This document shows positions 1,103-3,861 of a stretch of DNA of 6,926 nt, one piece after another. The stretch lies in the NCBI RefSeq assembly GCF_003334385.1, contig NZ_QOWN01000075.1; one strand, written 5' to 3'. The translations under genes were made by a program, and so were the position numbers. Under the pieces are notes generated by a model. It saw nothing but the letters and a program-made list of their open reading frames with translations. It was not told the origin of the DNA and did not search any database. Numbering within the stretch: position 1 is the stretch's first letter; the number at the start of each line of letters is the position of its first letter. This DNA is from Escherichia coli (lineage in GTDB: Bacteria > Pseudomonadota > Gammaproteobacteria > Enterobacterales > Enterobacteriaceae).

Positions 1103-1110
1103 GCATTAAC
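1103..1110. repeat. Target-site duplication, left copy (GCATTAAC) of the IS66-family element
   Basis: Exact 8-bp direct repeat; the other copy is at 3854-3861, and both abut the inferred IS termini. An 8-bp duplication is what the IS66 family produces. Confidence 0.8.
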
Positions 1111-1137
1111 GTGTCGTTACGGGGAAGTCATCTTCAC
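1111..1137 (+). repeat. IS66-family left terminal inverted repeat (GTGTCGTTACGGGGAAGTCATCTTCAC)
   Basis: Matches the reverse complement of 3827-3853 at 19 of 27 positions, including a shared CGGGGAA core and terminal GT. Confidence 0.65.
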
Positions 1138-1197
1138 AGGGATCTTCGGTCAGTTAGTATTACCGACATCCATTCACCAACTTACCGGAGATAATCG

Positions 1198-1527
1198 ATG
1201 TCAAAACCCCGATGGACCATTGAACAGAAAAGGCAGCACGTTGCTGCCTGGCGCGCCAGTGGTCTTACACGTCAGCAATACTGTGAACTCAACGATATTC
1301 CCTTCACATCACTTCGCGAATGGCCGCAGGATGTCGCAAAAGCTGAACGCCGGGCAAATGAACCGACCGTTCTTCCCATTCATATTGCGCCACCACTGCA
1401 TGCTGATGTACCACAGCCCGTCACGAATGAGCCAGTCACGCTCTTCCTTCCCGGTGGAGTACGGATGTGCTGTCAGCCGTCACAACTTACCGATGTCTTC
1501 AGGGCACTCAAATATGCTCAGTCCTGA
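1198..1527 (+). CDS. tnpA: IS66-family accessory protein TnpA (orf1, small helix-turn-helix protein)
   Basis: 109-aa ORF with GGAG at 1187-1190 seven nt upstream of ATG 1198. Its stop (TGA 1525-1527) overlaps the start of the next ORF (ATG 1514), the usual IS66 orf1/orf2 coupling. N-terminal W..E.K...V..W...G motif is typical of IS66 Orf1 / IS3-type HTH proteins. Confidence 0.8.
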   Translation: MSKPRWTIEQKRQHVAAWRASGLTRQQYCELNDIPFTSLREWPQDVAKAERRANEPTVLPIHIAPPLHADVPQPVTNEPVTLFLPGGVRMCCQPSQLTDVFRALKYAQS

Positions 1528-1893
1528 TAATGTCTTCATCGCAATTAAACCTGTTGACATGCGCCGGGGCATCGACTCACTGACGCAGTATATACATCGA
1601 CATGGCATGAGGGAGCCGCCTTCGTCTTTGTTAACAAAGCCCGTTCGCGTATCAAAGTTCTCCGGTGGGATAAACACGGGGTGTGGTTGTGTACCCGCCG
1701 TCTGCACAAAGGCAGCTTCCGCTGGCCACGTGCAAATGACGCTGCCTGGCACCTCACTCCCGACGAGTTTAACTGGCTGATTGCCGGTGTTGACTGGCAG
1801 CAGGTTAAGGGACATGACCTGACGAAATGGGTCTGGCAGAATGAACCTGAACTGCGCCCTGAAAACACGCAAAATACACTGCTAACTCAGTGA
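1514..1893 (+). pseudogene. tnpB: IS66-family TnpB (orf2), disrupted by an apparent single-base deletion (-1 frame change) near 1595-1605
   Basis: N-terminal part (MLSPDNVFIAIKPVDMRRGIDSLTQYI, with the conserved VDMR motif) is in the frame of ATG 1514. The conserved C-terminal part (EGAAFVFVNKARSRIKVLRWDKHGVWLCTRRLHKGSFRWP...) is in the -1 frame, ending at TGA 1891-1893. That downstream frame has no start codon of its own before 1681. Confidence 0.7.
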
Positions 1894-1899
1894 AAAATA

Positions 1900-3491
1900 A
1901 TGAATATCCGTATCTGGAGTGGTATACTCCCCTGTATGGATATCTCCGCTCTCAACACCACGAATGACATCGAAAAACTGCGTGCTATGGCACTTGCCAT
2001 GGTACAAGAAGTCATGTCGGAGAATGCCGAAAAAGAGCGGGAATTACTGGAGAAAAGCCGGCGCATCCAGCTTCTGGAAGAAATGCTGAAACTGGTTCGT
2101 CAACAGCGCTTCGGAAAAAAATGTGAAACGCTGGCTGGTATGCAACGCTCCCTGTTCGAAGAAGATGTTGATGCCGATATCGCCGCGCTTACCGCACATC
2201 TGGATAAACTGCTCCCGCAATCCCCTGAAGAAGACGAAAAAGCGTCCCGTTCACGCCCGATACGCAAACCCTTACCGGTTCATCTTCCACGGGTGGAAAA
2301 AATTATCCAGCCGGACACTGACCATTGCCCTGAATGTGACGAGCCGCTGCACTATATCCGCGATGCGGTGAGTGAAAAGCTGGAGTATATTCCCGCTCAC
2401 TTTGTGGTGAACCGTTATGTCCGTCCACAATACAGTTGTCCCTGTTGCCAGAAGGTGTTCAGCGGTGAAATGCCGGCACATATCCTCCCGAAAAGTGCCG
2501 TTGAGCCATCAGTCATCGCACAGGTGATCATCAATAAATACGGTGACCACCTGCCTCTGTATCGCCAGCAACAGGTCTTTGCCCGTTCAGATGTCGGGCT
2601 GCCCGTCAGTTCGATGGCTGACATGGTTGGCGCGGCGGGTGCCGCATTATCGCGTTACTCCATCGCGAGTTGATAAACCGTCCGGTGGTGCATGCAGATG
2701 AGACTACCCTGAAGATCCTGAACACGAAGAAAGGCGGTAAATCCTGCTCCGGTTATCTGTGGGCATACATCAGTGGAGAAAGGACGGGACCGTCAGTTGT
2801 GTGCTTCGACTGCCGGACCGGACGTAGCCATGAGTATCCTGAAAACTGGCTTCAGGGCTGGGGCGGGACGCTGGTTGTCGACGGACATAAAGCTTACCGG
2901 ACTCTGGCAAACAAAGTGCCGGAGATCACGCTGGCCGGATGCTGGGCCCATGCCCGCAGGGGCTTCGCCGACCTGTATAAAATCAGTAAAGATCCACGGG
3001 CTGCCATAGCCGTGAAGAAAATCGCGGGGTTGTACCGTCTTGAGAAGAAGATCAGTAGCCGCCCCGTGGAAAAAATCCGCCAGTGGCGACAGCGTTATGC
3101 CCGTCCGATACTGGAAGAACTGTGGTCATGGCTTGAAGAGCAGGAACCGCAATGTTCTCCGGGAAGGGCATTACACAAAGCCATTGCCTATGCGCTGTCT
3201 CATCGCGTGGAACTGAGCCGCTTCCTGGAAGATGGTGCGGTGCCGCTGGATAATAATGTGTGTGAACGGGCCATCAAAAACGTGGTTCTGGGCAGAAAAT
3301 CGTGGCTGTTCGCCGGTTCGCAGATGGCGGGAGAACGCGCCGCGCAAATAATGTGCTTGCTGGAAACCGCGAAACGCAACGGTCTGGAGCCGCATGCCTG
3401 GTTGACAGACGTCCTGATGCGTCTGCCGGAGTGGCCGGAGGAGCGACTGGCAGAGTTGCTGCCTCTTGAGGGATTTACCTTCTCCGGGTGA
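1900..3491 (+). pseudogene. tnpC: IS66-family transposase TnpC (orf3), split by a -1 frame change near 2648-2656
   Basis: Upstream part (1900-2673) carries a leucine-zipper-like N-terminus and a CxxC...CxxC zinc ribbon (HCPECDEP...CPCCQKV). Downstream part (frame of 2670-3491) carries VHADETTLKIL, CWAHARR and DNNVCERAIK...GRKSWLF motifs. Joined with one extra base it would encode about 530 aa. An alternative start is ATG 1936. Confidence 0.8.
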
Positions 3492-3496
3492 GTGAT

Positions 3497-3564
3497 ACCT
3501 GCCGTCAGGTGTTCGTGCACCGGGCCATAACTTGCAGTCGGGAGTTGAACTCCTGACGGCAGGT
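3497..3564. repeat. Inverted repeat with 13-bp perfect arms (ACCTGCCGTCAGG / CCTGACGGCAGGT) separated by 42 bp, immediately after the tnpC stop
   Basis: 3497-3509 is the exact reverse complement of 3552-3564. Confidence 0.8.
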
Positions 3565-3630
3565 TATGAGCCAGACCAGCAACCACGCGGGCTGACAGCG
3601 AATAAGAACCTGAATCAGCCCGGAGTCATT

Positions 3631-3712
3631 CCCGGGTCAGTACATCATCACCTGCTATTAATCCCCGAGTCAGTACTTCGCGGCCTGACGCGATCACCCT
3701 ACTCAGTACTTC
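3631..3712 (+). repeat. Three direct repeats, CCC-N3-TCAGTACWTC, at an exact 33-bp period inside the IS66 3' non-coding region
   Basis: TCAGTAC starts at 3637, 3670 and 3703, each preceded by a C-rich stretch. A degenerate fourth copy (GAGTCAT) lies at about 3622. Confidence 0.7.
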
Positions 3713-3826
3713 AGAGCCCGCCTCCGGTACCTGCCTGGCGATCGCCCCTGTGCAACAAAATAAATCAACCGTTATCAAACCACGATCGTTCGTATGCGCC
3801 GCCGATGACGCGCGCCTGAAAAACGC

Positions 3827-3853
3827 GTCAATATGAGTTCCCCGGAAGCTTAC
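3827..3853 (-). repeat. IS66-family right terminal inverted repeat (reverse complement GTAAGCTTCCGGGGAACTCATATTGAC)
   Basis: Pairs with 1111-1137 at 19 of 27 positions. Its outer end reads GTAAGC on the reverse strand, the terminus I recall as typical of the IS66 family. It is followed directly by the 8-bp duplication. Confidence 0.65.
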
Positions 3854-3861
3854 GCATTAAC
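3854..3861. repeat. Target-site duplication, right copy (GCATTAAC) of the IS66-family element
   Basis: Identical to 1103-1110 and directly abuts the right IS terminus. Confidence 0.8.

Follow-up and report, generated by a model that had tools for sequence, protein, structure and literature searches.

Captured functional insertion sequences (ISs) of the IS66 family measure 2731–2829 bp and are tabulated with 8-bp target-site duplications; the terminal inverted repeats (IRs) of the 2731- and 2829-bp elements match at 26/35 and 20/22 positions (PMC3281130, Table 2). An 8-bp duplication is also cited for IS66 itself (PMC6778807). For ISEc49, a catalogued member of this family, we found only passing mentions, in two papers. 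Here we describe an ISEc49 copy in a 6,926-nucleotide stretch of the Escherichia coli contig NZ_QOWN01000075.1 (assembly GCF_003334385.1) – referred to throughout, at its full length, as the window. Positions 1111–3853 of the window are one copy of ISEc49, with genes in the order tnpA–tnpB–tnpC. We consider it very probable that this is an old, inherited copy whose ends are intact and whose tnpB and tnpC genes have decayed. The features that bear on this reading are as follows.

1111–3853, plus strand: ISEc49 (IS66 family) copy, 2743 bp, structurally full-length and coding-defective, assigned by nucleotide identity.
1103–1110, no strand: left copy of the target-site duplication GCATTAAC, present as a single copy in the K-12 empty site.
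3854–3861, no strand: right copy of the target-site duplication GCATTAAC, directly outside the right element end.
1111–1137, plus strand: left terminal inverted repeat (IRL), GTGTCGTTACGGGGAAGTCATCTTCAC, with 19/27 matches to the right one.
3827–3853, minus strand: right terminal inverted repeat (IRR), reading GTAAGCTTCCGGGGAACTCATATTGAC from the outside inward.
1198–1527, plus strand: tnpA, intact, 109 amino acids (aa), assigned by NF047593, the IS66 TnpA model of NCBIfam (E=4e-13, which passes its curated cut-off).
1514–1893, plus strand: tnpB pseudogene, with a 13-bp deletion (GGATGAACTCCGG) after 1596, located by alignment to the SCU-101 copy.
1936–3491, plus strand: tnpC (DDE transposase) pseudogene, with a 10-bp deletion (TCCCCTGGCG) after 2651 that leaves open reading frames (ORFs) at 1936–2673 and 2670–3491.

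We compared positions 1111–3853 by megablast with 5,426 complete E. coli genomes, the set to which all genome counts below refer. The sequence matched copies annotated as ISEc49 by the NCBI Prokaryotic Genome Annotation Pipeline (PGAP) at 98–99.6% identity over 100% of its length, and the genes of these copies are annotated tnpA, tnpB and ‘IS66-like element ISEc49 family transposase’. The name used here is that of the PGAP annotation, which served as a proxy for the ISfinder isoform criterion of at least 95%. The reference copies share with the window copy their termini, gene order, a 362-bp 3′ non-coding tail and an 8-bp duplication. Intact copies measure 2766 bp; the window copy has lost 23 bp of this length, 13 from tnpB and 10 from tnpC, and is frameshifted in both genes. 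Related copies are found on Escherichia, Shigella and Salmonella plasmids as well.

Membership in the IS66 family, proposed in a preliminary description made from the sequence alone, is supported by the ISEc49 identity and by protein models. The intact reference TnpC carries four Pfam IS66 transposase domains – LZ_Tnp_IS66 (PF13007), zf-IS66 (PF13005), DDE_Tnp_IS66 (PF03050, E=5e-90, residues 187–470) and DDE_Tnp_IS66_C (PF13817) – and scores 441.6 bits against NCBIfam NF033517 (transpos_IS66; cut-off 180). The two halves of the window tnpC match positions 3–137 and 149–386 of the same model, so the gene is present but split. Intact TnpB scores 115 bits against NF033819 (IS66_TnpB; cut-off 50) across model positions 1–90 of 90. 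As in other family members, the accessory genes tnpA and tnpB lie upstream of tnpC, with tnpB starting at 1514 inside tnpA; the imperfect IRs fall within the family range of about 15–35 bp, and the length of 2743 bp (2766 bp when intact) within that of about 2.5–2.8 kb.

Elements of the ISEc8, IS682 and IS679 type from pathogenic E. coli have the same three-gene organization, the same Pfam and NCBIfam families and the same family-typical features. These elements are nevertheless only distant relatives: the TnpC proteins of ISEc8 and ISEc49 share 34% amino-acid identity, which makes ISEc49 a distinct IS66-family member. The window element also differs in this comparison at its left end, which reads GTGTCG and not GTAAGC as at its own right end.

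The preliminary description had placed GCATTAAC directly outside both element ends and had reported 27-bp imperfect IRs inside them, and both observations are correct. The 8-mer occurs exactly twice in the window; its chance expectation is a mean of 0.21 copies per window, and at least two copies arose in 5/200 dinucleotide-preserving shuffles. Position is the real test of the duplication: both copies abut the element ends, which outweighs the shuffle count. Our recount of the terminal repeats, comparing 1111–1137 with the reverse complement of 3827–3853, again gave 19/27 identical positions, with GT at the start of each.

Independent copies of ISEc49 have the same boundaries. Three copies at unrelated sites – a plasmid traF/trbE interval, the traX gene of another plasmid and chromosomal rpnC – have the same first and last 30 bases, beginning GTGTCGTTACGGGG and ending CCCCGGAAGCTTAC (GTGTCG...GCTTAC, as in the window copy). 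Each is flanked by an 8-bp direct repeat of its own (CTTCATTC, GTATGAAG and AGAGAAAG). These shared termini and separate duplications fix the element ends at 1111 and 3853 and establish 8 bp as the length of the duplication that ISEc49 makes.

The insertion itself had been described as a simple one into an intergenic site, with the suggestion that the empty site be looked for in related genomes. We joined the flanking sequences (701–1110 and 3862–4150) and found an uninterrupted match to at least 80% of this query in about 2,158 of the 5,426 genomes. K-12 MG1655 has the predicted empty site, CGCTGGCATTAACAATAACATG: in its CP4-44 prophage, the 120-bp interval from agn43 (flu) to yeeR contains one GCATTAAC (...CACATTCGCTGGCATTAACAATAACATGATATTC...). 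The K-12 flanks are 99.3% identical to those of the window, and yeeR begins at the same start codon, but in K-12 the site is free of any IS and yeeR is intact at 510 aa. Within the window the element begins 91 bp past the Ag43 stop codon (TGA, 1017–1019), and the downstream ATG at 3891 lies 29 bp past the second GCATTAAC – the spacings first reported.

An autonomous IS has uninterrupted reading frames, and in this respect the window copy falls short. Intact ISEc49, as in SCU-101 and CFT073, is 2766 bp long with three uninterrupted genes. In the window tnpA is intact (it is annotated at the same locus in NMBU-W12E19 and SCU-101), but tnpB (130 codons) goes out of frame near codon 28 and tnpC (521 codons) near codon 239. 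The same tnpB allele is flagged as a pseudogene by PGAP in NMBU-W12E19. The tnpC frame ends at a stop codon at 2671–2673; the break falls inside the DDE_Tnp_IS66 domain and upstream of HADET (residue 256), DGH (319) and DNN..E (442), which are candidate catalytic DDE motifs. The surviving N-terminal fragment of tnpC encodes 245 aa, including the leucine zipper and zinc finger; the catalytic portion lies out of frame in an ORF of its own (2670–3491), for which no means of expression is evident. No microhomology was evident at the junctions of the 13-bp and 10-bp deletions. The element had been called complete; that term suits its ends and gene order and does not suit its function, given the two frameshifting deletions relative to the 2766-bp copies.

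All three ORFs of an IS66-family element are reportedly required for transposition, according to work by Han et al. in 2001. On that basis the window copy is predicted to be non-autonomous, with no movement of its own. Its ends do not differ from those of the other copies, so that an intact ISEc49 elsewhere in the cell might at most mobilize it in trans.

The distribution of the insertion and of its lesions speaks to its age. Probes of 140 bp spanning the left and right filled junctions each matched full-length in 65/5,426 genomes, and the filled sites that we examined (the window, NMBU-W12E19, SCU-101, G1/2 and CFT073) share one orientation, one position and one junction sequence. Exactly 10 complete genomes have the 13-bp tnpB deletion, and they are the same 10 that carry an ISSso4 insertion in yeeR; the longer, undeleted form of tnpB occurs in 216 other records. 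The 10-bp tnpC deletion was found in none of the genomes (0/5,426) and is private to the window, with the longer form of tnpC in 180 records. Within the 10-genome group, three G1/2-type strains (German gut isolates) carry an independent tnpC deletion of 83 bp, corresponding to window positions 2188–2270. The closest complete E. coli genomes, NMBU-W12E19 and its relatives, match the window at 99.7%, and none is identical; NMBU-W12E19 differs by four substitutions in 6.9 kb beyond two private indels.

Because the insertion is shared by 65 genomes and its tnpB lesion by 10, it is older than the source strain, and it predates the tnpB deletion, the IS21-family insertion and the private tnpC deletion. 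The preliminary description, which had called the insertion relatively recent, is not borne out here: the junctions are identical across the 65 genomes, CFT073 among them, and nested lineage-specific lesions have arisen since. One old insertion, inherited or carried with its island, would be the simplest account of the filled sites. With tnpB already lost, two independent lesions in tnpC are consistent with a dead copy decaying neutrally.

Two of the loci with this insertion retain the less decayed state. At the agn43–ISEc49 loci of CFT073 (NC_004431.1, ~3,495,000) and SCU-101, the left junction is, as in the window, GCATTAAC followed by GTGTCGTTAC, 91 bp past the agn43 stop codon; SCU-101 has the right junction as well, with an intact yeeR-family gene downstream. 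Unlike the window copy, both have intact tnpA, tnpB and tnpC and lack the ISSso4 insertion. CFT073 further differs in that the region to the right of ISEc49 is taken by another IS66-family element. A search of the CFT073 locus for the exact right-end string of ISEc49 gave no match, so this locus was rearranged in a different way. The second CFT073 element lies directly after the intact ISEc49 and has a frameshifted tnpC of its own (L016 6821–9093).

In the history that we propose, a single transposition of the normal DDE-transposase kind placed ISEc49 in the 120-bp spacer that separates agn43 (flu) from yeeR on a CP4-44-type island, with duplication of GCATTAAC. This single insertion would then have been inherited by many E. 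coli lineages, or have moved into them with the island. The 13-bp deletion that killed tnpB was probably the first step of decay, in a lineage that also took, before or after it, an ISSso4-like IS21-family element into yeeR. Two private deletions would have come later, one of 10 bp that broke tnpC before the catalytic residues and one of 4 bp that frameshifted yeeR, with a non-autonomous fossil with intact ends as the presumed end state. Several points weigh against this history. That the 65 filled sites descend from one insertion is read from identical junctions and not from a phylogeny, the DDE residues are assigned by motif and not by structure, and the predicted loss of transposition depends on the reported need for all three ORFs. 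In addition, the 10-bp tnpC and 4-bp yeeR indels are seen in the window only and could be assembly errors, though they are not of the homopolymer type.

Several features of the copy would suit a complete, autonomous element that inserted recently in the source strain, as first described: its IRs are intact and the same as those of other copies, its 8-bp duplication is perfect and its tnpA is intact. That reading is scarcely credible given the frameshifts in both tnpB and tnpC compared with the 2766-bp copies and the recurrence of the same insertion in 65 complete genomes, including CFT073, with the tnpB lesion in 10. One could also suppose that the copy is functional after all and that its frameshifts reflect either programmed frameshifting or errors of assembly. 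IS1- and IS3-family elements do use programmed −1 frameshifting, and IS2 and IS1 cases are found among the neighbouring annotations. The lesions here, however, are 13- and 10-bp deletions relative to 216 and 180 longer single-ORF records rather than slippery sites, and tnpB and tnpC of intact ISEc49 are uninterrupted ORFs. As for assembly error, 10 independent assemblies agree on the tnpB deletion. A functional copy is thus very unlikely.

A different challenge concerns the number of insertions. If the GCATTAAC spacer were an ISEc49 hot spot, the 65 filled sites could represent several independent events, and targets would be plentiful: the agn43–yeeR module is multicopy, occurring at a median of 2 and up to 7 places per genome. 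Repeated insertion nonetheless sits poorly with the filled sites examined, all of which have the same orientation, position and junction. The three insertions found elsewhere lie in unrelated 8-mers with no apparent sequence preference, which argues against a sequence hot spot, and the secondary lesions are nested, as descent predicts. We therefore judge independent insertions improbable and favour a single old insertion followed by decay.

This is a known IS at a known site, public since CFT073 was sequenced, and will not surprise a specialist. For annotation, the element is better recorded as defective ISEc49, its tnpB and tnpC being pseudogenes, than as an active IS, and the small ORF downstream as a yeeR pseudogene fragment. 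The nested lesions also provide a lineage marker for the agn43 island, leading from ISEc49 (65 genomes) through the tnpB deletion with ISSso4 (10 genomes) to the private tnpC and yeeR indels. The conserved non-coding tail, with its hairpin and its motifs spaced 33 bp apart, and a promoter-like match near the left end complete the features of the element.

3492–3826, plus strand: 3′ non-coding region of the IS, with a hairpin and three CCCNNNTCAGTAC motifs (sequence features).
1133–1160, plus strand: sigma-70-like promoter match (TTCACA, 16-bp spacer, TAGTAT), a consensus match only, overlapping IRL and upstream of tnpA.

The CCCNNNTCAGTAC motifs begin at 3631, 3664 and 3697 (region 3628–3726), exactly 33 bp apart; 33 bp is about three helical turns. 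They are kept in right-end relatives of 77.8–93.5% identity that retain this stretch. At the left end, searched in either orientation, there was no exact match to CCCNNNTCAGTAC beyond the three right-end copies, and matches with two mismatches were at chance level. Just past the tnpC stop codon, an inverted repeat at 3497–3572 forms a predicted stable hairpin: the RNA fold of 3485–3600 has an energy of −55.8 kcal/mol (z = −4.7), with no U-tract. The core repeat of this hairpin, CCTGCCGTCAGG / CCTGACGGCAGG, is broadly conserved, with one apparent compensatory change (TUM1881 and CH427) and mismatches in other relatives. The long stem is partly lineage-specific, T3532 and TT3564–65 differing in other copies. 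A terminator after tnpC was considered and set aside: the terminator scan returned none, and the strong hairpin at 3523–3572 lacks a U-tract. An Rfam scan of the whole window at a permissive threshold matched no RNA family. The 362-bp tail might be an undescribed functional cis element of this IS66 subgroup – a subterminal array of TnpA/TnpC binding sites or the template of a regulatory RNA – but we hold this suggestion to be doubtful.

A right-end remnant of an ISEc49-related IS66-family element, 78.8% identical, is present in K-12 BZKR3G40 (~4,491,200–4,491,700; L013 2783–3305). It is annotated as a frameshifted ‘transposase domain-containing protein’ and adjoins IS4 and a phosphoethanolamine-transferase pseudogene; similar remnants occur in more than 2,000 genomes. 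Missing from the K-12 remnant is precisely the segment between the end of the first CCCNNNTCAGTAC motif and the core of the third, and the gap looks as though the CCCNNNTCAGTAC repeats had recombined.

The flanks of the element comprise one gene end, one gene stump and a second IS.

45–1019, plus strand: 3′ end of agn43/flu, which specifies the last 324 aa, with the beta-barrel, of the autotransporter adhesin Ag43 (NCBIfam auto_Ag43 NF033177, E=3e-225, positions 625–948 of 948).
3891–4151, plus strand: 5′ stump of yeeR, with the same ATG as K-12 yeeR, a 4-bp deletion after 4078, a stop codon at 4089–4091 and an interruption at 4151/4152.
4152–6789, plus strand: ISSso4-like IS21-family element of 2638 bp in yeeR, with istA frameshifted and istB intact; yeeR resumes after it.

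On the left, agn43 is a flanking gene outside the IS and is annotated at the corresponding locus in related genomes including NMBU-W12E19, SCU-101 and CFT073. A perfect palindrome with 12-bp arms, GGTCCCGGTCAT-C-ATGACCGGGACC, lies at 1040–1064, 21 bp beyond the stop codon of agn43; no T-run follows, and it may be a transcript-end hairpin of agn43. It is upstream of the insertion point and unaffected by the insertion.

On the right, what had been taken for a small membrane-protein gene is instead the first ~63 codons of yeeR, ended by a 4-bp deletion and followed by the IS21-family insertion. From the same ATG, yeeR encodes a 510-aa protein in K-12 and an 838-aa version in SCU-101. The 4-bp loss, in a GCTG repeat (GCTGGCTGGCTGG, 4075–4082), frameshifts yeeR upstream of the IS21-family insertion and is private to the window, being absent from both NMBU-W12E19 (the closest genome) and G1/2. 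NCBIfam returned no family for the yeeR stump, K-12 YeeR or the 838-aa variant.

The ISSso4-like element in yeeR carries lesions of its own. A 1-bp deletion in an A-run near 4740 divides istA into ORFs at 4273–4878 and 4725–5918; it is common to all ten genomes with the insertion, and other ISSso4 copies have an intact istA of 1536 nucleotides. The element ends are TGCAAAA...ACGCA. Three other copies have clean 6-bp duplications (GGCAGG, TCGTAG and GCAGAT); in the window the left flank ends in CGCTGG and the right flank begins with GCGG, which makes the duplication either imperfect or too short by 2 bp. This discrepancy is the same in all ten genomes that share the insertion. The left end of the element (4159–4280) contains about four tandem 23-bp repeats (TTTGGCAT...CGATC), and related inverted motifs occur at its right end (~6720–6780). 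The ends of IS21-family elements carry multiple terminal repeats, which the array at 4159–4280 resembles.

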